A stretch of 64,000 nt of DNA. Origin: an uncultured Flavobacteriaceae bacterium. Its GTDB lineage: Bacteria > Bacteroidota > Bacteroidia > Flavobacteriales > Flavobacteriaceae. The stretch lies in assembly GCA_964351845.1 (NCBI GenBank), contig CAYGQJ010000013.1, forward strand, positions 7,182-71,181, read 5' to 3'. The notes beneath the pieces are model-generated. The model made no database searches and was not told where the DNA came from. It was given only the letters and a program-made list of their open reading frames with translations. Shown in pieces: positions 10,598-53,474 of this stretch. The stretch's first letter is position 1. Each line of letters opens with the position of its first letter. Position numbers and translations under genes: made by a program.

Positions 10598-12598
10598 TTA
10601 ATCTTCAGTAAGAGGTGTAGGTTTTTGAACTGCTTTTAATATATAGTTAGGTATCATCTCATTGGGCGGTGTACTTTTACCATATAGTTGATACGAATTA
10701 TAATTCCCTCCTGTAAATACAGTAATCATATCTAATGCTGGCCAAATATTAATTTTTTGCCCCCCATTCCCCGAAGCTTGATATGAATTATATCTTCGAC
10801 CCTCAATGTCAAAGTGTTTTTGATACCACAAGTAGCCATAATCACCTGCATCCATTCTAAAGGTTTTACTGACCCAATCTGCTGAGACTACTTGTTGACC
10901 TTGCCATTTTCCGCCGTCTTTATACATTTTAGCCAATTTAACTAAATCTCTTGGTGTTATTCTCATCGTACTAAACGTTGTTATACTAGACTTGTTTGGT
11001 TCAAAAGTCCAGTGGTAATTTGATATTCCCATTGGGTCAAATAGATGTTGTTTTGAAAACTCTTCTATGTTTTCTCCAGTTGAGACCTCTACCAAACTAC
11101 CTAAAGTAAGTGCACAGCCTGTACAATAGGAAGAAGATTTCCCAGGCGCTGTGATCATTGGCAAATCGAGTGTGTACTTTACCCAGTCTTCACTTTCCAT
11201 CATTGACCCCTCATTTCCTTTGCTCTCCTGATTACCATCTTCACAGTCTAAACCGTGTCGATACATTAAGAAATTTTCTATGGTGAGTTCCTTTTTCCTG
11301 GCATCTACATTGGCAATTTCTGGATACCTTGATTTGAAATAAGGCAGAAGTTTATCTTTTTCACCTTTTATAAATCCTTTGTCTATAGCAATACCAACGA
11401 TCCCACCAATGAAAGGCTTTGTTGCTGATCTTAATTGATGCGGTGTATCTTTATCATACCCATAAAAATACTCCTCAAGAACTAACGTATTATTCTTATA
11501 AATTAATATGCTATGCACATCTGGGTAATCCCCTTTTATCGTTTCCCTAACCATATCTAGTATGAGTTCCGGGTTTTGAAATGCGTCTTCCAAAGAACCT
11601 GTTTGTAAGCCATCAGGTAAGGCTATTGGTTTTTGATAGGTATAATCCTCAGGATGATGGAAAAGTTCTTTTCTTGGGAACATATCCATCTTCTCAATCT
11701 TTGTGGTTATTAACTTAAAAAATTGCTCATCGGTTGTATAAGCTATGACTTTATCAAGTTGATCTCTGCTGAATATAACAGTGCTTCCTTGTGCATCAGT
11801 AAAGCTATCTAAAGCGATGAATTTTAATGGATATTTTGCATTCTCTATGACCGCATAAAGGATGGTGTCTAATGCAGATGCCTTCAGCTCTAGCGTTGTA
11901 TTATTAATATATTCATATTTTCCTTCGTAGGCTAAAAGTGTTTCATATTCAGATGTTTCTTTTTTGGAAGAACACCCTATAGTTAATAACAACGTAATGA
12001 CTAACAACACAATTACGTTTTTTGAAAAATAGCTTTTCGTATTCCGTTTCAAGAAAGGAATCGATAACGGATAAAAGCATTTTTGTGACGTTACGGCTTT
12101 AAAAATATTATACGTTATTACCAAAATATTAAAAGGAACTACAGCAATAAAAAATAAAAAGCCCCATTTTTCAACTGTAACTAAAGATATAGAAGCAATA
12201 ATATATAATATAGTTACACTCAATTGGAAGTTAATAACCTTAATCCCATGTTCATTATATATAGCATTATCCTCTCGCTTATGGAGCCATAAAAAGAGTG
12301 GAATTAACACCGAAAACGGAAAGATAAATCCCAATAATGGTGAGCCATGTATAAACAGTAGCCATTTTTTTTGTAATGCCTCTTTTTTTGGATTCTCTAA
12401 CACCAATAGGTCTTCGGCTGTTATTCCTAGCGCATTTGATAATAACTGTATCGTTTGTAGTTGTGGGTTTACTTCGTCTTTTTCAATACGCTGTATTGTT
12501 CGTATTGTTACTTCAGATTTTTCAGATAGTTTACCCTGTGTGTACCCTTTTAGTTTTCTTTGGTACACTAAATTTTTTCCAATTGATTGAGTTTTCAT
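10598..12598 (-). CDS. Fusion protein: XRE helix-turn-helix + DUF4870-like membrane domain + serine hydrolase (beta-lactamase/PBP-like)
   Basis: N-terminal HTH (YQRKLKGYTQGKLSEKSEVTIRTIQRIEK), three hydrophobic helices with the DUF4870-type HGIKVINFQLS...FYPLSIPF, then SATK (SxxK), YCT (YxN-like) and SGNGGQ motifs. Start moved from 12643 to 12598 because a TAnnTTTG box lies at 12615-12622. Confidence 0.8.
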   Translation of the reverse strand: MKTQSIGKNLVYQRKLKGYTQGKLSEKSEVTIRTIQRIEKDEVNPQLQTIQLLSNALGITAEDLLVLENPKKEALQKKWLLFIHGSPLLGFIFPFSVLIPLFLWLHKREDNAIYNEHGIKVINFQLSVTILYIIASISLVTVEKWGFLFFIAVVPFNILVITYNIFKAVTSQKCFYPLSIPFLKRNTKSYFSKNVIVLLVITLLLTIGCSSKKETSEYETLLAYEGKYEYINNTTLELKASALDTILYAVIENAKYPLKFIALDSFTDAQGSTVIFSRDQLDKVIAYTTDEQFFKLITTKIEKMDMFPRKELFHHPEDYTYQKPIALPDGLQTGSLEDAFQNPELILDMVRETIKGDYPDVHSILIYKNNTLVLEEYFYGYDKDTPHQLRSATKPFIGGIVGIAIDKGFIKGEKDKLLPYFKSRYPEIANVDARKKELTIENFLMYRHGLDCEDGNQESKGNEGSMMESEDWVKYTLDLPMITAPGKSSSYCTGCALTLGSLVEVSTGENIEEFSKQHLFDPMGISNYHWTFEPNKSSITTFSTMRITPRDLVKLAKMYKDGGKWQGQQVVSADWVSKTFRMDAGDYGYLWYQKHFDIEGRRYNSYQASGNGGQKINIWPALDMITVFTGGNYNSYQLYGKSTPPNEMIPNYILKAVQKPTPLTED

Positions 12599-17320: not shown

Positions 17321-18379
17321 ATGAATTTAAAAACGTATCTATTCTTCGTTTTCCTTCTATCTTTTGCTTTCGCGAAAGCGCAAGACCAAAAAACCTACAA
17401 GCCACACACCATCGCTTTTTATAACGTAGAAAATCTTTTTGATACGGAAAATGATCCTATTACATTTGATGATGACCGTACGCCAGACGGAAAAGATCAT
17501 TGGACCGAAGCTATCTATGCAGATAAAATACAGAAAATGGCGCGTGTCATCTCAGAAATAGGCAAAGACATTACAAAAAATGCCCCTGCTATTATTGGAC
17601 TGGCTGAAATAGAAAATAGAAAAACCGTAGAGGCACTTGCTAATGATCCTCAATTACTAGACAAAGAGTATGGAATAGCCCATTTTGACTCCCCAGATCG
17701 AAGAGGAATTGATGTCGCTCTTATGTATCAGAAAGCAATATTTACGCCTATACACATTAGTAAACACGAGCTTATTATTTACACTAATGACGATGCTAAA
17801 AAACGTAAATATACACGCGATCAACTACTGGTTTCGGGTTTATTGGATGGGGATATGATTCATGTGATTGTCAACCACTGGCCTTCGCGTTCTGGTGGAG
17901 AAGCCCGAAGTCGTAAAAAACGTATGGCAGCGGCAGCACTTAATAAAAAAATCATAGATAGCCTTCAAAGTAATGACCCGTATGCAAAAATCATCACCAT
18001 GGGAGATCTTAACGACGACCCGACAAGCCCGAGTGTAAAAAAAGTATTGAAAGCTAAAGGAGATAAAGACAAAATAAAAGATAAGATGCTCTATAATCCT
18101 ATGGAGCCTATGTTTAAAAAAGGGATGGGTACCTTAGCTTATAGAGATGGTTGGAATCTTTTTGATCAAATCTTAATTACAGAACCCTTATTACGTAAAG
18201 AATATAGTTCCTACAGGTATTTTAAAGCGGGTATTTATAACAAAAATTACCTCAACACCCCAAAGGGTCGGTACAAAGGATATCCGTATCGCAGCTTTGC
18301 TAATGGAGGCTACACGGGAGGGTATAGTGATCATTATCCCGTATATATTGTCCTTATCAAAGAAGTAGCAGATAATTAG
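17321..18379 (+). CDS. Secreted endonuclease/exonuclease/phosphatase (EEP) family nuclease
   Basis: IAFYNVENLFDT, GLAEIEN, DRRGIDVAL, VNHWPSR, MGDLND, LFDQI, GYSDHYPV. Confidence 0.9.
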   Translation: MNLKTYLFFVFLLSFAFAKAQDQKTYKPHTIAFYNVENLFDTENDPITFDDDRTPDGKDHWTEAIYADKIQKMARVISEIGKDITKNAPAIIGLAEIENRKTVEALANDPQLLDKEYGIAHFDSPDRRGIDVALMYQKAIFTPIHISKHELIIYTNDDAKKRKYTRDQLLVSGLLDGDMIHVIVNHWPSRSGGEARSRKKRMAAAALNKKIIDSLQSNDPYAKIITMGDLNDDPTSPSVKKVLKAKGDKDKIKDKMLYNPMEPMFKKGMGTLAYRDGWNLFDQILITEPLLRKEYSSYRYFKAGIYNKNYLNTPKGRYKGYPYRSFANGGYTGGYSDHYPVYIVLIKEVADN

Positions 18380-31677: not shown

Positions 31678-32346
31678 ATGCCAAAAACAGCCATCATATT
31701 AGGAGCGACAGGACTTACAGGAGGCCTCTTAACCGAACTTCTCATCAATGATCCTGCCTATTCAAAAATCAAACTCCTTACCAGAAGACCTACCACATTT
31801 TCCAGCCCTAAAATAGAAGAAGTCATTTGTGATCTGCTTAACCTAGAAACGGTCAAAGAAGAGGTTACAGGAGATGTCGTTTTTTGCTGTATTGGTACCA
31901 CAAAAGCCAAAACACCTAATCGAGATCTATATCACAAGATTGATTACGGAATTCCGCTAAAAGCTGCAAAACTTGCAATAGAAAATAAGATAACCACGTT
32001 TATGGTGGTCTCCTCTATAGGCACTTCTGCTAAAAGCCCGTTTTTCTATGTCCGTACCAAAGGAGAAATGGAACGCGATGTGCTAAAAATAGGGATCCCA
32101 CATACCTATATTATGAAACCTGCCTTTATCAATGGCCGTCCCGATGAAGATCGAAAAGGAGAAAAAAGCCTTAAACTCCTCATGCGTATCATGGACTTTT
32201 TTATGGTAGGACCACTTAAAAAATACAAATCTACACAGGCACTACAAATCGCCAAAGCCATGGCATATCTCGGGACACACGATCACAAAGAACAGAATGT
32301 GCTCAATGATCAAATCAAAACACTAAGCAATGCCTATAGCATTTGA
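31678..32346 (+). CDS. NAD(P)H-binding short-chain oxidoreductase (TIP30/YraR-like)
   Basis: ILGATGLTG, FCCIGTT, IDYGIP, FYVRTKGEME; TACATTTG -7 box at 31666-31673. Confidence 0.85.
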   Translation: MPKTAIILGATGLTGGLLTELLINDPAYSKIKLLTRRPTTFSSPKIEEVICDLLNLETVKEEVTGDVVFCCIGTTKAKTPNRDLYHKIDYGIPLKAAKLAIENKITTFMVVSSIGTSAKSPFFYVRTKGEMERDVLKIGIPHTYIMKPAFINGRPDEDRKGEKSLKLLMRIMDFFMVGPLKKYKSTQALQIAKAMAYLGTHDHKEQNVLNDQIKTLSNAYSI

Positions 32347-32740
32347 TCACATCACGGCACCTTCAAAAAACCTAGAGGCTTCCATTGCATTCTATAAAAA
32401 GATAGGAATGACACTTATTGAGATAGAACCTAAGCATCATGCGCACTTTGAAAATAAGGAACATCATACCATTTTTACTGTATATTACAACACAAAACGC
32501 CCAGAAGATGACGTCATTATTTACTTTGAAGTCACTCATATTGAGTTATTGGAAGTCCGCTTTCGCGAACTTGCCTCGCCAGCAGGCAGGAGCGAATACT
32601 TCATAAAAACAAACTACGCTACTTCCTGGGGAGGTCACGAACTTCACCTGAAAGACCCAGACGGAAATTGTGTAATTTTATATCAAAAGAATCAAACGGG
32701 AAATACCCCGCCTTGGCAAACCGCAACATATGAATCTTAA
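32330..32740 (+). CDS. VOC/glyoxalase family protein with an in-frame 21-nt repeat insertion
   Basis: FDHIT...FYKKIG...WGGHELHLKDPDGN; a split palindrome A plus B insert encodes RFRE-LASPAGR-SE. Confidence 0.8.
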   Translation: MPIAFDHITAPSKNLEASIAFYKKIGMTLIEIEPKHHAHFENKEHHTIFTVYYNTKRPEDDVIIYFEVTHIELLEVRFRELASPAGRSEYFIKTNYATSWGGHELHLKDPDGNCVILYQKNQTGNTPPWQTATYES

Positions 32741-33635
32741 TCAAATCACCATACCCTCCATAGACGTCAATCACGCTGTTGCGTTTTATAAAAAACTAGG
32801 ACTCCTACTCATTGTATACGTGCCTGAGCAATACGCTCGTTTTGAATGCCCCGATGGTGACAGTACGTTTTCTATCCATAAAGTAGACGAATTATCGTCT
32901 GGAGAGGGCGTCATTGTCTATTTTGAAATAGAAGAGCTTGACAAAAAAGTAGCCGAATTACAAGATCTTCACGGAGATACGATTCATTTTGACCTACTTC
33001 CTACAGACCAGTCATGGTTATGGAGAGAAGCCCGACTCAAAGACCCGGACGGGAATCAGCTTATTTTATTCCATGCAGGAGATAACAGGAAGAATCCGCC
33101 TTGGCGAATTAAAAGTGAAACTACAGAAGATTCTCGCCTTCGCGAGAATGAAAGTGAATCTTTTGAAATAGAACGTAAATTTTTACTCACCTCAGATGCT
33201 TTCAAAAAAGAAGCAAAGACCGCAACACGCATTACACAAGGATATCTCAGTATAGCCCCTGAACGCACGGTGCGTATTCGCACAAAAGGAGACAAAGGGT
33301 TTCTCACGATAAAAGGAAAATCAAATGAGAGCGGTACCACGCGTGTTGAAGTGGAGGAAGAGATCGCTTTCGCGAAAGCGGAAACACTTCTCAAACTCTG
33401 CCTTCCCGGGATCATAGATAAAACCCGATACGAAGTTATTATCGGAAAACACACCTGGGAAATCGACGAATTTTACGGAGAAAATGCTGGACTCCTACTC
33501 GCCGAAATAGAACTCTCCCAAGAGAATGAATTTTTTCAAAAACCCTCTTGGATTGGAAAAGAAGTTACTGGAAATAAAAAATACTATAATTCTTATCTTA
33601 GTACACATCCTTTCAAAGGTTGGGACGAAGAATAA
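32730..33635 (+). CDS. VOC family domain fused to a CYTH (triphosphate tunnel metalloenzyme) domain
   Basis: N-terminal MNLNQITIP...WLWREARLKDPDGNQLILF; C-terminal EIERKFL, ITQGYL, RTVRIR, LTIKG, KTRY, WEIDEFYG, LAEIEL, YYNSYL. Confidence 0.85.
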   Translation: MNLNQITIPSIDVNHAVAFYKKLGLLLIVYVPEQYARFECPDGDSTFSIHKVDELSSGEGVIVYFEIEELDKKVAELQDLHGDTIHFDLLPTDQSWLWREARLKDPDGNQLILFHAGDNRKNPPWRIKSETTEDSRLRENESESFEIERKFLLTSDAFKKEAKTATRITQGYLSIAPERTVRIRTKGDKGFLTIKGKSNESGTTRVEVEEEIAFAKAETLLKLCLPGIIDKTRYEVIIGKHTWEIDEFYGENAGLLLAEIELSQENEFFQKPSWIGKEVTGNKKYYNSYLSTHPFKGWDEE

Positions 33636-34225: not shown

Positions 34226-34924
34226 TTACAAATCATCTGCTGTTCCTTTTACTGCTGGTTTAATGTTTTTTGGCAAATGAGATTTTAACATCTTTAATGT
34301 CTGTATTGCTGTTCCTCTTCCTATTATAACACCATTATTAGAACGAACTTCATACGTCCCCTTTTCATCAATGATTGGAATTACGATAGGTATATCATAA
34401 GTATATGGATACCCTGTACATCTACTAAAACAAAGTCTCATTAAACTAGTAAAAGGAAACAATTTCCCAATAATTTCATCCTGTTTAGCAATTTCTATAA
34501 ATTCTCGTAATTCTTTGAAATTCTCATTTTGGACATAGGAGTTCCATGCATATTCTACCTCTCTATTTTCATCAAATGCTATTGCTTTATTATTTGGCTC
34601 AACCCATGTAAATGTTTCTGATAATTTGTTTGTAGAAACATTATTTAAAAGCCAAAAGTCAATTACGGTCACCAATTCATTTAATTCACTTGTTTGCCCA
34701 TTTGCAAGGCAAACCCCATCTCTCCAAAAATCAGGCAGAAAAATATGCTTCTTTGATGCTAAGTAAATTTGAGAAAATTTGTTCCTATATTCTACTAGCG
34801 CATATGTCAAAGGAAATTTATCTATTGATTCATTTTCCTGAACCCTTAACGGTGATTTTATTTTTGCAAACCCACTATTAAGAGCATTATTTATGTTTCC
34901 GTATTTTTCTATTTCAAGATACAT
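34226..34924 (-). CDS. Hypothetical protein, possibly DUF6193-like
   Basis: 232-aa ORF, visibly AT-rich. The C-terminal LFPFTSLMRLCFSRCTGYPY..DIP resembles, from recall only, the DUF6193 family. Confidence 0.5.
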   Translation of the reverse strand: MYLEIEKYGNINNALNSGFAKIKSPLRVQENESIDKFPLTYALVEYRNKFSQIYLASKKHIFLPDFWRDGVCLANGQTSELNELVTVIDFWLLNNVSTNKLSETFTWVEPNNKAIAFDENREVEYAWNSYVQNENFKELREFIEIAKQDEIIGKLFPFTSLMRLCFSRCTGYPYTYDIPIVIPIIDEKGTYEVRSNNGVIIGRGTAIQTLKMLKSHLPKNIKPAVKGTADDL

Positions 34925-34964
34925 CCCCTATTACTTTTCTTTACATACACTCGCCAAAATCTAA

Positions 34965-35429
34965 TCAGACCCCTTTCAATAATCGTTTATCAAAAACAAT
35001 AGGAAGTTCATCCACAATCTTAACCTTAGAAAAATCAGGATGCTTTGGATTTATAAGAATATTATCATCTATGGGATTAATCGCCGAGGGAACGCTAAGG
35101 CATAAAAACTCAGCCTTCGCTACAAATTGATCTCCAATATCTAAAACAGTAGGATGTTCTGTTCTATGTATCCAATCTTCTGGCAAGTCCTCTAGAGCAA
35201 TACGACCCATGGTCATCGTCTTAGGAAATTCCAGTACGATAATTTTTAAATCTTTAGGAAATACATACACAGGAATATGCACTAATTTCTCAAGCATCGC
35301 CAGCGAACTATTTCCCGCTGTATAAAGCACCGAAGTCCCTTTACGGTTCCATCTTCCCCCATAAAGACGAGCCCCTTCGCCAGAGAGGTCTTTGGCATAG
35401 GTATCTTTGGCTATTCTATATACTCGCAT
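34965..35429 (-). CDS. RES domain toxin (NAD+ phosphorylase family)
   Basis: MRVYRIAK..Y..DLSGEGARLYGGRWN..G..VLYTA.NSSLAMLE.LVH, VPSAI, NILINPKHPDF. Confidence 0.92.
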   Translation of the reverse strand: MRVYRIAKDTYAKDLSGEGARLYGGRWNRKGTSVLYTAGNSSLAMLEKLVHIPVYVFPKDLKIIVLEFPKTMTMGRIALEDLPEDWIHRTEHPTVLDIGDQFVAKAEFLCLSVPSAINPIDDNILINPKHPDFSKVKIVDELPIVFDKRLLKGV

Positions 35430-46873: not shown

Positions 46874-48223
46874 ATGAACCGTACGATCCTCTCTTTTTTA
46901 GTCAGTTTTTTGATTTCTACATCTATTTTCCTGTCATCCGAACAGGCAGGCGCGCAAGCGGACTTTTTACAGTCAGGGCCTATGGTGGGATATTCTGATT
47001 TTCGAGAAGTACTGATTTGGGTACAAACCAAAGCTCCTGCCGATGTGAAAATTGGATATTTCGCTCAAGGCGAAAAGGAACGATTCACACCCACCGTTAC
47101 CGCTACAGCAGCCGAAGATCATATTGTAAAATTATTTCCAAGTGACGTGGCATATGGAACGCAATACACCTATAAATTATACATCAATAATCAACATGTA
47201 AAACGCCCGTATCCTTTAGAATTCCAAACGCAAACCTTATGGCAATATCGCACAGATCCGCCATCATTTACCTTTGCGATTGGATCTTGTTTTTATCGGA
47301 ATGACCCTACAGATGACCGCCCTGGAAAACCGTATGGAGATGTCTACGGAATCTTTGAGAGTATCGTTCAAAAAAGTCCTGATTTTATGGTCTGGCTGGG
47401 GGACAATATTTACCTACGCACCCCCGATTTCCAATCTGAACGTGGCATCCGATATCGGAACCGAGAAGCGCGTGCCACACCAGAATTACAATCTTTATTA
47501 GGAAGTGTACATCACTACGCGATTTGGGATGACCACGATTTTGGCCCCAATGATTCTGATCGGAGTTATGTACATAAAAAAATGACTGAAAAAGCCTTTA
47601 ACGACTATTGGGGGAATCCGAGTACCAATGCCACTGGAGAAGGCGGGATTACGGGACAATTTGTGTGGAATGATGTCGAGTTCTTCTTGATGGATGATCG
47701 CTATCACCGCGCACCTAACCGAAGTCTTGACACTACTAAAGACTACCTTGGAGAAGCGCAACTCAACTGGCTTATAGATGCGCTAACGGCTAGTAAAGCA
47801 TCTTTCAAAATCGTATGTATTGGTGGGCAAACCATCAGTGATGCGGCGGTGTACGAAAACTACGCCACGTATCCAGAAGCCCGCAAGCGTTTATTAGATC
47901 GTATTGCCGCCGAAAAGATAGAAGGCGTTGTCTTTATGAGTGGAGACAGGCATCATACGGAGATCTCTCGTTTAGAACGCCCAAATGCCTATCCGCTGAT
48001 TGATATTACGTGTTCGCCGCTTACTTCGGGCACCCATAAAGCCCGTGATGAAGGAAATACGTTACAAGTAAAAGACAAAACGTATTATGAGCGCAACTTT
48101 GGCATAGTCAACGTTTCTGGAACGTATGGAAAACGTACGCTTCTACTTACCATTTATGACGAAAAAGGGGCAAAAGTATGGGATTATACGATCTCACAAG
48201 AGGAATTGAAGTATCAAAAATAA
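46874..48223 (+). CDS. phoD: PhoD family alkaline phosphatase
   Basis: FAIGSCF, WLGDNIY, IWDDHDF, FFLMDDRYHR, LGEAQLNWL, MSGDRHH. Confidence 0.88.
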   Translation: MNRTILSFLVSFLISTSIFLSSEQAGAQADFLQSGPMVGYSDFREVLIWVQTKAPADVKIGYFAQGEKERFTPTVTATAAEDHIVKLFPSDVAYGTQYTYKLYINNQHVKRPYPLEFQTQTLWQYRTDPPSFTFAIGSCFYRNDPTDDRPGKPYGDVYGIFESIVQKSPDFMVWLGDNIYLRTPDFQSERGIRYRNREARATPELQSLLGSVHHYAIWDDHDFGPNDSDRSYVHKKMTEKAFNDYWGNPSTNATGEGGITGQFVWNDVEFFLMDDRYHRAPNRSLDTTKDYLGEAQLNWLIDALTASKASFKIVCIGGQTISDAAVYENYATYPEARKRLLDRIAAEKIEGVVFMSGDRHHTEISRLERPNAYPLIDITCSPLTSGTHKARDEGNTLQVKDKTYYERNFGIVNVSGTYGKRTLLLTIYDEKGAKVWDYTISQEELKYQK

Positions 48224-48224
48224 A

Positions 48225-48453
48225 GCCGGGGCTTCAGTACAATTTTTAGGATTGCTTTTAGCAATTATAAAAATCACTCAGCCACCTTTGATCCGTTTTT
48301 AATATGTGCTTTCGCGAAAATCACTTAGCCGCCTTATATTTTGTTTTAAAGTCGGCATTTCGATACATTTTGCTTCAATAGAAAAAGAATCAAAGGACAT
48401 TGAGTGATTTCAGAGTTCTGAAAAAGAACTCTGAAATAGTACCGAAATGCCGG
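48225..48453. repeat. X/Y mosaic (BIME/REPIN-like) unit 1
   Basis: X GGGGCTTCAGTAC..ATCACTCAGCCACC (48225-48287), partial A+X (48308-48333), Y GGACATTGAGTGA..GTACCGAAATGCCGG (48395-48453). Confidence 0.88.
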
Positions 48454-48458
48454 GTTCT

Positions 48459-49952
48459 TTACTCCACCACCTCAAAGGCTTGAATCGCGGCATTAGGCTC
48501 CATAATGGTATAGCCTGTCCAAAACGTAGGATCGTATTTTGATAAATAAGTCGCTTCTACGTTTTCATTTTCTGAAGCCGCTTCATAGGCGGTACTTGAA
48601 ATATCTTCTGAGTTAAAAATAACCATCTCATATTTAGACAAAGACGTTCCTTGCATATCGATGTTCAGCGAAAGCTCATTTTGCTTACGACGGCCTTTGA
48701 CAAATTTGTTTTTTTCGATCACTTTTAACGGGCGATCGATGCCAAAATAGTTTCCATTTTCTAACTCCAAATACCGCGGACTATAACTTCCACTGGCATT
48801 TTTAGCAAATAGCATTTTTCCTCTGTAGACATTTTCACCGTACTTAATCCCTAATAACCCAAAGGTAAATAGCGGACGCACATTGTCAAATTCTAAGCGT
48901 ACAATGGCAAAATCATCGATGTTGACAAATGCGGTTCCTTTAAAGTCTTTTTTGCCTTTGGGCGAAAAGTCAATAATATACACTGGCTCCTCATCGATAA
49001 ACGTATAATCTCTGATTTCAAACTCATACCGATTCGATTTTGTGAGGATATCAATCTTAGAATCTTCATTAAAAAAAAGTTGGGTGTACAGTTCGGAAAT
49101 ACGATTTTTAATCTGTTCTTGGAAGTCTTGATTATTGGCATTTTCGACCTCTACCTTTACTTTATTGGCATCTTCATTGGCCGCAGTAATAGAGTCTAAT
49201 TGTACTTTGGTTCCAAAAAGTCCCGACTTAATTTTAAGGTAGGAATTAGGTTTTACATTTTCTTTAAAAATGGTTTCCAGGCGTTCACTGAGTCCGTCGA
49301 CAGAGACATCTTTGGACTTATCATACAGCTCGGCTGCTTTATCTACATATAGCTTATGCTTATTGTAATTCCCATAAAAATCACCGACGGCTTCGCGATA
49401 ATAGGAAGATTCACGCGGGACAAGCGTTGCAATGCTATCAATCAATTCTTTGTCAAGCTCTTCTATTGTTGATTTTTTAAAGGCGAAATCTACTTTTTTC
49501 ATCGCATTAAAATCCGACTGCCTAAAGAAAATTTTCTTTTTAGATAATTCTTGAACATCGTAGTTTTTATACATATTTTCTTTGACTTTCTCAATCACTT
49601 CTTTGGCAGAAAGCGGATTGCTAGAAAGAAAAACACCTTTCAGCTCGAATGATTTTGGCGAAAGCCGCACCAGACTATCTGTAAGGGAGGCTACCCAAAT
49701 TCCTTTACGTTCATACCCCATGGATGAGATATACACAGAGTCTTGTATTTTTTTAAGTTGGTCAGGATTGATGGTAAACATCCCATCTTCATTTGAAATC
49801 ACGCCTTGATTTTCTGAAAGTTCAATGGTCGCAAACGGAATCGGTTCTTGTGTTTTGTCATCAATAAGTCTGGCTGATACGGTTTGTGCGGTCATTCCTG
49901 ATACGAGGAATGCAGACAAGAGCATTAAAATGTATTTGATAAGTGTGGTCAT
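48459..49952 (-). CDS. Secreted protein with carboxypeptidase-like regulatory (D_2) N-terminal domain
   Basis: VSARLIDDKTQEPIPFATI...GVISNEDGMF...ISSMGY; YDPTFWTGYTIMEP C-terminus. Confidence 0.8.
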   Translation of the reverse strand: MTTLIKYILMLLSAFLVSGMTAQTVSARLIDDKTQEPIPFATIELSENQGVISNEDGMFTINPDQLKKIQDSVYISSMGYERKGIWVASLTDSLVRLSPKSFELKGVFLSSNPLSAKEVIEKVKENMYKNYDVQELSKKKIFFRQSDFNAMKKVDFAFKKSTIEELDKELIDSIATLVPRESSYYREAVGDFYGNYNKHKLYVDKAAELYDKSKDVSVDGLSERLETIFKENVKPNSYLKIKSGLFGTKVQLDSITAANEDANKVKVEVENANNQDFQEQIKNRISELYTQLFFNEDSKIDILTKSNRYEFEIRDYTFIDEEPVYIIDFSPKGKKDFKGTAFVNIDDFAIVRLEFDNVRPLFTFGLLGIKYGENVYRGKMLFAKNASGSYSPRYLELENGNYFGIDRPLKVIEKNKFVKGRRKQNELSLNIDMQGTSLSKYEMVIFNSEDISSTAYEAASENENVEATYLSKYDPTFWTGYTIMEPNAAIQAFEVVE

Positions 49953-50045
49953 GTGTGATTGTTTAGTAGTATAGACGCGTCATTTTCACAAAAGGTTGTC
50001 TCGCATCTTTTTTTATGACGATTTTATAGATGGAATGTTACTTAA

Positions 50046-50239
50046 GCCGGGGCTTCGGTACAATTTTTAGGATTGCTTTCAGCAATGATAAAAATCACTC
50101 AGCCGCCTTTGATTTGTTTTTGTTATATGCTTTCGCGAAAGCAAAAAATTACTCAGACGCCTAACATTACAACAAACACAGGACATTGAGTGATTTTAAA
50201 ATCCTGATAAAGGGTTTTGAAATAGTATCGAAATGTCGG
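50046..50239. repeat. X/Y mosaic unit 2 with an embedded palindrome A
   Basis: X 50046-50108, A 50129-50142, Y 50181-50239. Confidence 0.88.
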
Positions 50240-50253
50240 ATCAATAAGAAATA

Positions 50254-50412
50254 TCACTCTTCCTTTTGCTGTGCTTTGATTTTTTCTTTGAGGATTTTTA
50301 TACGGGCTTCATGAGCGTCTTTTTTCTCGCGCTCTTTCTTTTTCTTTTGTGCCATCAGCTTAGAATGCTTGGCTTTATTTTTTGTGTTTTTAGGACTTCC
50401 TGCTTTTGCCAT
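50254..50412 (-). CDS. Small basic protein (52 aa), not in the ORF track
   Basis: MAKAGSPKNTKNKAKHSKLMAQKKKKEREKKDAHEARIKILKEKIKAQQKEE*; TATCTTTG -7 box at 50417-50424. Confidence 0.7.
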   Translation of the reverse strand: MAKAGSPKNTKNKAKHSKLMAQKKKKEREKKDAHEARIKILKEKIKAQQKEE

Positions 50413-50437
50413 AAAGCAAAGATAGTGAAGATTAATT

Positions 50438-50562
50438 GGGGGCTTCGGTACAATTTCCGCTTACGCGAAAATCACTCAGCCGCCTAGCATTGTATCAAGG
50501 AGAGGACATTGAGTAATTTCAAAATCCTGAAAAAGGATTTTGAAATAGTATCGAAATGCCGG
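50438..50562. repeat. X/Y mosaic unit 3
   Basis: X with an A-like core (50438-50485), Y 50504-50562. Confidence 0.88.
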
Positions 50563-50610
50563 CATCATGGGTCCGCTTTAACGCTTTGCTCTCCCTTTTG
50601 GTCGTGAATC

Positions 50611-51213
50611 TCACAAGCTCGCTTTCGCGAAAGCGGTTTGCATCTCCTTAAATGCTTGCACAGGATCAGCTGCATTCCAAACGCCACCTAAGGCACCCAC
50701 GCCTTGAAAGCCTAGTTTGATCGCTTCTGGGGTAGTTTGTGCGTTGATACCGCCCATGCCTGCAATGAATTTTGGGATGTGACGTACATCAAAACCTCTG
50801 CCTTGCATCTCACTTTTGGAAATCGCTGCAAACACCGGACTTAGCAAATGATAGGCAAAATCAACGGACTGTGCGGCGAGGTCTTCAGGTTCGTGGTAGG
50901 AGCTACTGACCGAAAATTCATTGTCGGTGAAAGATTGAACATAGCTCGCCAACTGATCGCCTTGGGCTCTCCATTTACGTTCTTCCAGATGAATTCCTTT
51001 GATGGGAAACTCGGCCGTGAGTTCGTGATGGAAATTATGCGTCATAATATATTGATAATACTGCGGATCTACTTGATCCAAATAGGCACAGTGCGCTTCT
51101 AGCGTTGCCGCTGGTTTTCTAAAATGAAAATACTGCAAGCCCGCTTCAAAGAGTTGATGCAAGGTTTGAATTTCTGTAGCGCTGGTTTGTTCTGGTGATA
51201 TGAGTAGGATCAT
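50611..51213 (-). CDS. Thiamine phosphate synthase (ThiE/TenI) family protein
   Basis: LFEAGLQYFHFRKP, GIHL, SSSYH, LLSPVFAAISK, AGMGGI, GALGGVW; likelier start MILLISP at 51213. Confidence 0.82.
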   Translation of the reverse strand: MILLISPEQTSATEIQTLHQLFEAGLQYFHFRKPAATLEAHCAYLDQVDPQYYQYIMTHNFHHELTAEFPIKGIHLEERKWRAQGDQLASYVQSFTDNEFSVSSSYHEPEDLAAQSVDFAYHLLSPVFAAISKSEMQGRGFDVRHIPKFIAGMGGINAQTTPEAIKLGFQGVGALGGVWNAADPVQAFKEMQTAFAKASL

Positions 51214-51220
51214 AGTTTTT

Positions 51221-51494
51221 CTTTTCATTCCCTTGAATTTACCTACCGACAGGCAGGGATGGGAATCTCATCATAACGTAAAAGTACGGTTTAATCTACG
51301 TATGAGGAATTTGATTGGTTTTATACCGCTTATGATTCTTTTTAATTCCCGTGAAGACGGGAATCTAATTCTTTTTTTGATTACGTTTCAGAGCTTGAGA
51401 TTCCCGTAGTTATTTACTGATAAGCAGCTAGTAAAATAACATGAGATTCCCGCCGGAGTTTATGCTGAGCATAGTCGAAGTGCGGGAATGAAAG
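51221..51494. repeat. Cluster of family D (ATTCCC-N8-GGGAAT) hairpins, two with nested inserts
   Basis: 51227-51266 (with a 20-nt B insert), 51345-51364 (intact), half copy near 51397, 51446-51489 (with a C insert). Confidence 0.85.
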
Positions 51495-51499
51495 TATTA

Positions 51500-51796
51500 C
51501 TAACTAGAAGCAATCACCTGCTTCAACGCTTCTTTCTGTACCACCCCTGACTGTCGCCAGACTTGTTTTCCGTTTTTGAATAAGATCATGGTGGGGACAC
51601 CACGCACTTGATATTTGGTAGCTAAGGGTTGGTTTTTGTCAACGTCTATTTTGACGATTTTAACGGCATCCCCTAGTTCTTCTTTGACTTGTGTGAGGAT
51701 AGGGCCTAAGGTTTTACACGGCCCACACCAAGTCGCATAAAAGTCGACTAAAACAGGCGTTTCTGAGTTGATGATTTGGGAGAAAGAGGACTTCAT
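51500..51796 (-). CDS. trxA: Thioredoxin
   Basis: VLVDFYATWCGPCK, KIDVDKN, VRGVPT. Confidence 0.95.
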   Translation of the reverse strand: MKSSFSQIINSETPVLVDFYATWCGPCKTLGPILTQVKEELGDAVKIVKIDVDKNQPLATKYQVRGVPTMILFKNGKQVWRQSGVVQKEALKQVIASS

Positions 51797-51852
51797 TTTT
51801 ATTATTTACTATAAAGTTACGAAAAAAAGAAGCTATTGACTGAATCAAACGC

Positions 51853-51972
51853 GGGGCTTCGGTACAATTTTTAGGATTGCTTTCAGCAATTATAAAAATC
51901 ACTCAGCCGCCTTGCATTGTAACACAAAAGGACATTGAGTGACTCGCTGCAAGCGAGGTGTATCGAAATGAC
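51853..51972. repeat. X/Y mosaic unit 4
   Basis: X 51853-51912; Y with a short CTCGC-TGCAA-GCGAG core 51930-51972. Confidence 0.85.
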
Positions 51973-52142
51973 TGGCTCTAGTTTTCATGCTTCGAAAAAC
52001 AGGCTGCTGCAAAGTTTCTATATTGAGATCCCGCTATTCAGCGGGATTAGTTCAACTTACAAGGTTGAGTGCGTCTTTTCAGACTTCTCAACATTGAGTT
52101 TCACTAAAAATAGTATATTCAACATCGAAAATTAGAATCTCT

Positions 52143-52427
52143 ATGTCCAAAGAAAAATCTTGGAAACAACTCATTTTAGACCTCGCCAAGGCGATCTCTG
52201 AAAGCGTAACGGGTGCCTCACGAAAAAGAACTTGGCATCAACATGTGGTGCCGTATGAAGACGGTTGGGCAGTGCGCCGTGAAGGGAATAAACGGATTAC
52301 CTCTAAACATCGCAAACAAAGTACAGCCATTACCAAAGCGAAAGTGATCGCCAAAAGAAAGAAAGCGGATGTCATTATCCATCGAGCGAGTGGTGGGATT
52401 CGAGAGCGGATTGGTTATGGGGATTGA
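52143..52427 (+). CDS. DUF2188 domain-containing protein
   Basis: QHVVPYEDGWAVRREGNKR.....KQSTAI..AK.IAK.....V.IH...G.IRER..YG. Confidence 0.88.
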   Translation: MSKEKSWKQLILDLAKAISESVTGASRKRTWHQHVVPYEDGWAVRREGNKRITSKHRKQSTAITKAKVIAKRKKADVIIHRASGGIRERIGYGD

Positions 52428-52527
52428 GATGAGGGTTGTTTTTACGCTATTTTTTTAATGTGCTTCTACTGGGTTAGTCGTTTTTTGAAAGCTTCTTGTT
52501 GTTAGATATAAAAAATTAACTGAGGCT

Positions 52528-52577
52528 AGGCGTTTCTGATTTGATGATTTGGGAGAAAGAGGATTTCATTTTTTATT
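52528..52577 (-). pseudogene. Truncated duplicate of the trxA 5' end
   Basis: About 50-bp near-identical copy of 51755-51803; reads MKSSFSQIIKSETPSLS*. Confidence 0.75.
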
Positions 52578-52669
52578 GAATTTAGGGGGTAAATCTTACA
52601 TCGTGAAGATACACTTTTTTGCAAAGAATAGGCGTACAGGTTTCCGCAAAGGAGTTGCTGTGTAAGTGA

Positions 52670-53098
52670 TTACAGCAATTCTTCTTTACACATCAAACCT
52701 GGCATTTGTATTTTTTCTCCTTTAATAGTCGCAGAAGCGATGATATGCGCACAACTGTCTTTTATTTTCAGAATTTCTACATAGACAACCGTTTCTTTCA
52801 CAGACTCAATATCTACAAATTCTGGATCATTATAGCTAGACACATAATGCAACTCATAACTGCAATCACTCGTCCAGATAATGCTAACAATGACCTCAGA
52901 GACATTTCCATTAATGTCTACAATTTCTCGTTGCTCATCGCCTTGGCGTATAATCAAGGTTTCAAAAGATACATATTCATTCATAGGAACGACAAAGGAG
53001 CCTTCTTTAAAATCGGCGCAGGTCAATGCCTCTTGTGCCTGTAGGGCACTGACGACAAATAGCGTCATACAAAAACTAAAAAGGGTCTTCATTATCAT
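52670..53098 (-). CDS. Secreted hypothetical protein
   Basis: Signal peptide, C.DFKEGSF, I.WTSDCSYEL. Confidence 0.7.
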   Translation of the reverse strand: MIMKTLFSFCMTLFVVSALQAQEALTCADFKEGSFVVPMNEYVSFETLIIRQGDEQREIVDINGNVSEVIVSIIWTSDCSYELHYVSSYNDPEFVDIESVKETVVYVEILKIKDSCAHIIASATIKGEKIQMPGLMCKEELL

Positions 53099-53192
53099 TT
53101 TTTTTGTGAAGATACGAGAATTTGAAACTCTTGTGTCACAACATCGTCAAGTGCAATGACATCTCGTTTTTGTGTATGAGTGACAAAGACAT

Positions 53193-53474
53193 CCGGCATT
53201 TCGGTACAATTTATAAAGTGCTTTCAGCACTTTATAAATCACTCAATGTCCTAGCAGTGTTACAATGTAACAAACACACCCCTTAATCCCCTACTTCGAC
53301 AAGCTCAGCACAGCGTCTTTCTAGAGGGGAAACTCATACTTTAAATGTTTTAAAACTAAATGTAAGGTGGCTGAGTGATTTCGAAGCATGAGAAATAGTA
53401 TCGAAGCCACCGAGTCAAGAACTCAATGTAAGGTGGCTGCCTGTTTTGCTGAAAGCAAAAGGTACCGAAGCCCC
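53193..53474. repeat. Mosaic unit 5: inverted Y, an F hairpin with a C insert, two inverted X copies
   Basis: Y 53193-53251; CCCCT|24 nt|CTTTCTAGAGGGG 53288-53329; X 53365-53410 and 53430-53474. Confidence 0.85.

Follow-up and report, generated by a model that had tools for sequence, protein, structure and literature searches.

In a stretch of 64,000 nucleotides (nt) from an uncultured Flavobacteriaceae bacterium (contig CAYGQJ010000013.1 of assembly GCA_964351845.1, positions 7,182 to 71,181; hereafter the window), a VOC domain and a CYTH domain are encoded by a single gene in which the linker between them is a translated copy of a short palindromic repeat, here called D. The hairpin of this copy is kept as nucleic acid in related genomes while the peptide read from it drifts, and we lean towards an order of events in which D entered the spacer between two adjacent genes before loss of a stop codon joined them. 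The gene fusion itself is an ordinary Rosetta-stone case, and a hairpin repeat serving as translated linker is a small new example.

The fusion open reading frame (ORF; 32730..33635, + strand) is uninterrupted and encodes 301 residues plus a stop codon. The VOC/glyoxalase-bleomycin-resistance-like domain (32736..33110, + strand; residues 3–127, ending ...NRKNPPWRI) was assigned by Pfam and Foldseek, and matches PF00903 Glyoxalase/VOC over residues 3–111 (E 7e-5; 23.6 bits against a cut-off of 20.6). The CYTH / triphosphate tunnel metalloenzyme domain (33165..33632, + strand; residues 146–301) matches PF01928 over residues 145–280 (E 2e-13; 50.8 bits against a cut-off of 23.2). It starts with EIERKF, which contains the N-terminal ExExK motif that is a feature of this family, and E146-I-E148-R-K150 is invariant in 54 of 54 aligned sequences. 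Between the domains lie 18 residues of linker (33111..33164, + strand; residues 128–145, KSETTEDSRLRENESESF) that are predicted to be disordered and coincide with the hypervariable region of the homologue alignment. An AlphaFold model based on 54 homologues contains two confident domains, with the predicted local distance difference test score (pLDDT) below 50 at residues 129–145. The closest solved relatives of the CYTH half by sequence in the PDB are 2fbl/3typ, NE1496 of Nitrosomonas, and the same entries are the best Foldseek matches ('inorganic triphosphatase NE1496'; E 9e-12, TM-score TMt 0.75), with 7nsd also matched; the VOC half matches small VOC proteins (4mym, 1kll and 3vcx). Judging from the model, the CYTH module is most similar to the inorganic triphosphatase NE1496, with a predicted triphosphate-tunnel fold, and the VOC module is a confidently predicted domain with the paired beta-alpha-beta-beta-beta fold. 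The product would be one polypeptide in which an N-terminal VOC is tethered through a disordered linker of ~18 residues to a C-terminal CYTH.

The D copy at the junction is of the short form (33128..33155, + strand; AGATTCTCGCCTTCGCGAGAATGAAAGT, that is, AG-ATTCTCGC-CTTC-GCGAGAAT-GAAAGT). Its hairpin at 33130–33149 has a perfect 8-bp stem, ATTCTCGC/GCGAGAAT, with arms at 33130–33137 and 33142–33149 and the loop CTTC, and a predicted RNA minimum free energy of -10.9 kcal/mol (z = -2.7 against shuffles). It is read in the frame that we call a (GAT TCT CGC CTT CGC GAG AAT GAA), giving (E)DSRLRENES, and the CYTH signature FEIERKF comes after the junction with no Met of its own. The original prediction, a model's reading of the window from its letters, had described the fusion ORF with its two domains and the junction sequence, stem, peptide and missing Met in these terms, and every one of these details is borne out. 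The pattern GATTCYCGC-N(0-30)-GCGRGAATGAAAGT has exactly two matches in the window, at 33129–33155 and 51445–51495, and none is expected by chance (100 shuffles). The second match belongs to an intergenic long-form copy (51444..51495, + strand) immediately beyond the 3′ end of a thioredoxin gene, in which an outer stem ATTCCCGC/GCGGGAAT encloses a 28-nt inner segment with its own 6-bp hairpin; it folds at -18.6 kcal/mol (z = -3.1). The predicted correspondence between the junction and this intergenic copy is confirmed, with the end of the copy moved from 51494 to 51495. A terminator was considered for the junction hairpin and rejected, as it lacks a T-run and was uncalled in a terminator scan. 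We note also that directly 5′ of the linker the NPPWRI codons (33093–33110; AATCCGCCTTGGCGAATT) form a near-palindrome like the D core (CCGCCTT.GCGG), which may be a coincidence or may be a context that favoured D at the linker.

An ORF fused across a hairpin could be an artefact of assembly or sequencing error, which can arise at hairpins, or a pseudogene, and the annotation of the Dokdonia ponticola (D. ponticola) protein (P0049) as a 173-residue CYTH protein alone might be read in the same way. We regard this as having next to no chance of being right. The junction is covered, with zero substitutions or indels, by Logan contigs of four independent runs on biofilm and marine metagenomes. This check uses assembled contigs; the original prediction had asked for one with reads. 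Moreover, ~47 homologous clusters are full length, and both domains are conserved and confidently folded. D. ponticola was also tried as an unfused relative and rejected: its DNA (L082 2623-3522, JBHSFV010000010.1) is one continuous ORF of 299 residues, in which the VOC half is uncalled and the short call begins at an internal ATT codon. The 173-residue call is an annotation artefact that hides the fusion. A search of RNA runs gave only runs with 4% of words in common; a 620-nt contig of a relative, possibly RNA-derived, spans the junction as well, and the contigs are uninformative on transcript ends.

The full fusion is carried by 47 protein clusters (at least 98% query coverage, 51–81% identity) from Dokdonia and relatives. 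Dokdonia species are the nearest named relatives, which makes the source of the window a Dokdonia-like flavobacterium. About 26 of the 47 match the D peptide patterns and about six more resemble decayed copies, giving ~32 linkers that appear to derive from D. In the junction DNA of 13 fused loci there is a clear hairpin in nine, always in the same orientation; in two others (L166 and L167) it has decayed, and L165 and L170 have none. The identity of the linker as a D repeat is upheld at the DNA level in the nine orthologous loci with a clear hairpin. One of the fused loci, L081, has the long 51-nt form as its linker (translated EISAGVYAEHSRSAGM), and this is identical to the window copy at 51444–51495 at 49 of 51 positions. 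The surrounding gene order is also conserved, with dinB, a gene for an NAD-binding protein, sometimes the paralogous gene VOC1, then VOC-CYTH, YCII, often a RES/Xre pair, and finally PBP1. The VOC-CYTH fusion is thus old and conserved, and not a fresh product of a repeat system in this genome. The original prediction had named a widespread fusion with a linker unrelated to D as the observation that would tell against it, and what is found is divided: the fusion is indeed widespread, in ~47 clusters, and the linker is D-derived in ~32 of these and in none of the distant P0041–P0047.

Relatives with separate, adjacent VOC and CYTH genes, which had been anticipated, are present at no fewer than 13 loci with the same synteny (dinB, NAD-binding, VOC, CYTH, YCII), namely L001, L002/L083, L086, L088, L091, L098, L099, L105, L110, L124, L127, L135 and L147, and L084 is a fourteenth. 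Of the first 13, eleven are metagenome contigs and the other two are a Flavobacteriaceae metagenome-assembled genome (L001) and Dokdonia sp. Asnod2-E02 (L002). A scan of a genome collection returned mostly stand-alone CYTH genes and two useful loci, and a metagenome scan with a VOC-only alignment returned split loci, with no fused ones among the matches listed. In the split loci the VOC gene ends ...PPWR(I/L/V)x-stop, the conserved C-terminal PPWR motif marking its end, and the CYTH gene starts M(L/H/I/Q)EIERKF, with the codons overlapping or 0–23 nt apart. Both parts of the fusion are therefore found separately elsewhere with order and neighbourhood kept, at 14 or more split loci. The further expectation, that D should lie between the separated genes, is realized once. 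In L084 the VOC gene ends PPWRVN-stop, the CYTH gene starts ML-EIERKF, and the 30-nt spacer between the stop and start codons holds a D-like hairpin, ATTTCTAT-CTTC-ACAGAAAT-GAC, with one stem mismatch.

Comparison of the fused loci shows that the hairpin nucleotides are kept while the linker peptide drifts. Two frames of the repeat are stop-free and the third, frame c, hits TGA. In fused orthologues frame a (GAT TCC CGC CTT CGC GGG AAT GA) gives DSRLRGN(E/D) and frame b (GAG ATT TCC GCC TTC GCG GAA ATG) gives EISAFAEM, and the two alternate even among sister sequences. One example of a switch is the contig of the related organism X9, where a 1-nt deletion at 33124 is paired with a 1-nt insertion after 33150, and these shift the intact hairpin out of frame a into frame b. 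A second type of paired event, 33134 T>C with 33145 A>G, is present in the contigs of related organisms X9 and X22. Among eight short-form junction hairpins, from loci picked for a recognisable hairpin, 95% of stem cells are paired and five of the eight pairs have double-sided CG<->UA changes; this covariation was matched in 0 of 500 shuffles, and shifted registers pair at 36–53%. With the same choice of loci, the 20-nt hairpins are on average 72.5% identical in pairwise comparison, and the four-fold degenerate sites in the domains on either side 40.7%. The resemblance to D could in principle be due to chance, or could follow from selection for a linker peptide that is charged and flexible, with no part played by the repeat, since EDSRLRENES and EISAFAEM are both hydrophilic and suited to a linker. 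This we judge to be very improbable, as the same nucleotides in two frames yield unrelated peptides, paired frameshifts flank an intact hairpin, the 51-nt insert of L081 is nearly identical to an intergenic copy of another genome, and zero chance matches are expected for the D pattern.

A scenario that would account for the distribution starts with an ancestor having two adjacent, translationally coupled genes, VOC (...PPWRIN-stop) and CYTH (M[LHIQ]EIERKF), a separation that many Flavobacteriaceae still show. The spacer between these cistrons would have gained a D palindrome copy in the Dokdonia clade; with two stop-free frames in D, loss of the VOC stop codon would have opened read-through and turned the repeat into a linker; and after fusion the peptide would have drifted freely with the hairpin kept at the nucleotide level. 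In a neighbour-joining tree of VOC plus CYTH (61 sequences) the split forms are basal, with the D-less fusions P0041-47 interspersed among them, and in the Dokdonia clade most members are fused with D, the split L002, L086, L091 and L084 being nested inside the clade; one node uniting split and fused members has 100% bootstrap. Of the nested loci, L086 and L091 have a TAATG overlap and an MHEIERKF start as in the outgroup L001, and this outgroup-type junction speaks for retention of the ancestral state and against a renewed split. These junctions, the L084 hairpin and the intergenic habit of D together favour entry of D into the spacer ahead of the fusion, an order we think somewhat better than evenly supported.

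Several observations weigh against this account. The deep nodes of the tree are weakly supported, so that the order of events is not fixed by it. The seven distant fusions P0041–P0047 have linkers without D (for L165 and L170, at the DNA level too). Other partners, namely a GNAT acetyltransferase, lipocalin-like or unassigned domain, follow immediately after PPWR in further proteins of this VOC subfamily (MNLNQ...PPWR). The latter proteins (P0151, P0169, P0189, P0237 and P0254) come from a 50%-identity representative library, a search of which listed VOC fusions to other partners and not the VOC-CYTH family itself. This VOC is a promiscuous N-terminal module in other lineages, and because of these fusions and the D-less VOC-CYTH proteins D is not required for fusion. 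A D hairpin is also read in frame c (LRFPPTRKL) in L167, where it occupies an indel-prone surface loop of PBP1 (12296–12315, - strand), so that D could have been inserted into a linker after fusion. L084, for its part, might have arisen by secondary fission and would then be no intermediate. The hairpin itself has decayed in L166, L167 and L172, and the stem mismatches are mostly A.C, not G.U, on the sense strand, a pattern that gives no support to selection acting on the sense RNA in particular.

Several of these points would fit an alternative in which fusion came first and D was inserted later, in frame, into an existing unconstrained linker, in the manner of the Rickettsia palindromic elements (RPEs; see below), being tolerated there because the linker is disordered; the split forms within the Dokdonia clade would then be secondary fissions or recombination products. 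It draws on the D-less fusions in neighbouring lineages, the readiness of this VOC to fuse with several other partners and the in-frame D of the L167 PBP1 loop, as well as on L084, in which VOC and CYTH are in frame at a spacing of 60 nt, the distance in the fused L163 and L169. It also accommodates linker alleles that disagree with the domain tree: of the sisters L081 and L172, which are 88% identical, the former has linker flanks like those of L164 and the latter flanks like those of the window, a discordance that points to recombination at the locus. Against it, the TAATG overlaps and MHEIERKF starts of L086 and L091 and the PPWR[IV]N-stop ends of L002 and L084 would have had to be rebuilt from a long-linker fusion, which is unlikely, and about nine D sites are intergenic with only one independent site (PBP1) clearly genic. 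Insertion after fusion is a credible reading to which we give distinctly less weight than to entry of D into the spacer. The read-through across an intergenic repeat put forward in the original prediction therefore stands in part: it has the split relatives and L084 in its favour, but D is unnecessary for fusion and the tree leaves the order unsettled.

Elsewhere in these genomes D conforms to the consensus (T/G)AG-ATTYCCGC-CTTC-GCGGRAAT-(G/T)A, with a short form of 20 nt and a long form of 51 nt. There are 4–5 units in the 64-kb window and 2–4 per 12–21 kb in L167, L169 and L171, mostly intergenic. One example is an orthologous hairpin 8–10 nt 5′ of the start codon of an HPPD-like (double glyoxalase) gene in three genomes (L167 6924, L169 6930, L171 7417), and copies in the same place in three genomes indicate that intergenic D is positionally conserved and not recently mobile. 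A second example is a copy in L169 downstream of PBP1, between it and an A2M-like gene. From its positions D would be mainly an intergenic, intra-operon repeat. The independent genic sites are the VOC-CYTH linker (in many orthologues) and the PBP1 loop of L167, with a possible third at the N-terminus of the A2M-like ORF in L167. The original prediction had raised the possibility that the repeat system is generating new chimeric proteins, and this is not sustained: the fusion is shared by ~47 clusters, and two genic D sites are no evidence for a general chimera-generating system. In L166 the same PBP1 loop reads YRFRESV, which is a different, 14-nt palindrome (see below) in its RFRES frame, and variable protein loops seem to host these palindromes.

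The persistence of the junction hairpin has two types of explanation, and both fit: it is kept either because a DNA or RNA structure is under selection, or because the copies evolve in concert or are corrected with the palindrome as template. With no function at all, the hairpin could be maintained by such templated correction or by gene conversion between copies, and with palindrome-templated correction the 'compensatory' changes arise automatically. A specific form of the first explanation, compatible with either order of events, is that the hairpin is a working cis-element within the ORF, an RNA or DNA structure carried over from its intercistronic past. Candidate roles include ribosome pausing between the domains, an mRNA 3′-end or processing site giving a VOC-only message and, for frame-b alleles, an internal ATG (GAA ATG A) for a separate CYTH product. 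Such an element would be consistent with nucleotide conservation far above that of neutral sites, with the compensatory changes and frame switching, with the conserved intercistronic D sites ahead of the HPPD-like gene in three genomes, and with the in-frame ATG (frame b) and TGA (frame c) at the 3′ edge of the repeat. We nonetheless consider it unlikely. An Rfam scan of the whole window returned no family, the absence of a T-run makes the hairpin unlike a terminator, and functionless correction or gene conversion would yield the same pattern. That the hairpin has decayed in L166, L167, L172 and P0013/14/16, all of them still fused, and that the mismatches are of the A.C type, argues against an indispensable sense-RNA element.

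Other palindromes in the window also lie within coding DNA. The 14-nt palindrome GCTTTCGCGAAAGC has 11 exact copies in the 64 kb, one of them at 33366–33379 in the CYTH domain; the other cores are at 17368, 22816, 30478, 37709, 44325, 50131, 50623, 57438, 58533 and 61086. The commonest palindromic 8-mer in the window is TTCGCGAA, with 17 copies, and 10 of 14 TTTCGCGAAA cores are inside long ORFs, in all three frames (AFAKA, LSRKR, RFRES). At the CYTH copy (EIAFAKAET) every synonymous position is identical in nine loci, against ~41% identity at four-fold sites elsewhere, and relatives that do not have the palindrome have different residues in the same columns. By analogy, GCTTTCGCGAAAGC looks like a HIP1-like hyper-abundant palindrome. 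A further example is in VOC1 (32330..32740, + strand; 136 residues), the paralogous VOC gene immediately upstream, whose own stop codon overlaps the start of the fusion ORF. At 32564–32596 it has a 27-nt in-frame, hairpin-forming insert, CTTGCCTCGCCAGCAGGCAGGAGCGAA, that splits a CGCTTTCGCGAA|AGCG palindrome which is intact in Dokdonia sp. Asnod2-E02; the piece of ~40 nt there matches several unrelated metagenome contigs and is therefore multi-copy elsewhere.

Such cases suggest that in this clade the maintenance of palindromes within coding sequence is a wider phenomenon, a topic on which a literature search found no paper. The strongest version would be that Dokdonia-clade genomes have an active or selected system of short GC-rich palindromes (D, GCTTTCGCGAAAGC and a CCTGCC...GGCAGG hairpin) that are written or maintained in coding DNA regardless of frame, with the VOC-CYTH hairpin as a functional cis-element; this is a speculative proposal that we doubt. 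If true, the hairpin might for example set the ratio of fused to separate products or mark the mRNA or DNA for a dedicated protein that binds or processes it, and the system would correspond, in flavobacteria, to cyanobacterial HIP1 together with RPE-like remodelling of proteins.

The remaining D units of the window form a cluster at 51.2–51.5 kb between a TMP-TENI-like gene and the thioredoxin gene. In addition to the long-form copy, they are an intergenic short-form hairpin (51345..51364, - strand; ATTCCCGT-CTTC-ACGGGAAT), a half copy (51397-51407) and a D-like unit with a 24-nt loop (51227..51266, - strand; ATTCCCAT...AAGGGAAT) whose 3′ flank, GAATGAAAAG, overlaps the TMP-TENI-like ORF (50611–51228) and supplies its first ATG. 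The cluster (51219–51495) is within a repeat-rich stretch at 47600–53300, where a unit of ~95 nt in three copies (48223, 50044 and 51848) and a second 95-nt family (48359, 50145 and 50468), both with internal hairpins, are interleaved with small genes. Nearer to the fusion gene, the YCII gene is followed closely downstream by a DUF6193 gene and a RES-domain toxin gene (34226–35429, - strand). The RES gene of relatives is paired with an Xre-type antitoxin gene, and the slot 3′ of YCII holds, depending on the relative, a DUF6193, RES/Xre or OmpA gene, a variable spot beside a conserved operon.

The locus is of interest in that it shows nearly all stages from repeat to protein: coupled genes, split genes with a hairpin, fusions in two frames, and decayed copies. 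It also offers a rare case of translated DNA in which the constraint demonstrably lies on the nucleic acid and not on the peptide, the evidence being the covarying stem, the paired frameshifts and a conservation exceeding that of four-fold sites. If the hairpin is functional, cultured Dokdonia strains with the gene would be a simple system for studying structured repeats within ORFs, in translation, mRNA processing or genome maintenance; if it is functionless, what the locus documents is that palindromes within genes are maintained in a concerted or templated way. In annotation terms, the locus accounts for pipelines that split or truncate the gene, as in D. ponticola, and for the recurrence of 'DSRLRGN/EISAFAEM'-type peptides among flavobacterial proteins.

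A literature search on the D family or the 14-nt palindrome in Dokdonia or Flavobacteria found nothing relevant, and a BLAST search with the long D copy found no match in phage and plasmid collections, from which D is not part of a mobile element catalogued there. Several known systems share features with it. Like the elements of the repetitive extragenic palindrome (REP) and bacterial interspersed mosaic element (BIME) type, D is a short (20–40 bp for REPs), GC-rich, imperfect palindrome that, in the loci covered, appears to be multi-copy, mostly intergenic, and often placed within operons or after stop codons. Classical REPs have a GTAG or CGTC tetranucleotide at one end and are associated with RAYT proteins (PMC3733652), whereas ~20 D copies are flanked (T/G)AG-ATT.../...AAT-(G/T)A with no GTAG/CGTC tag; REPs are also extragenic by definition, and the junction copy of D is translated. 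[quoted passage not shown] They have terminal inverted repeats and target-site duplications and exceed 100 bp, unlike D, which is a single hairpin with no visible duplication. As in a Rosetta-stone fusion through stop-codon loss, the two domains here are separate, adjacent and translationally coupled in relatives; the departure from the ordinary case is that the former spacer holds a repeat from which most of the linker derives and which is conserved at the nucleic-acid level.

The closest known system in behaviour, by analogy, would be the RPEs, palindromic repeats inserted in frame in protein-coding genes (Ogata et al. 2000, reviewed in PMC10969869), the peptides of which are described as conserved (PMC10969869). 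Both D, judged from its two genic sites, and the RPEs are palindromic families that occur between genes and in frame within ORFs, where they are translated in structurally tolerant places, which for D are a disordered interdomain linker and a variable PBP1 loop in L167. D differs in being 20–51 nt rather than ~100–150 nt long, in having no sequence similarity to RPEs, and in having a free-living marine flavobacterium as host. It differs further in its position, exactly where two once-separate genes meet, in its reading frame, which varies among orthologues, and in the covariation of its stem.

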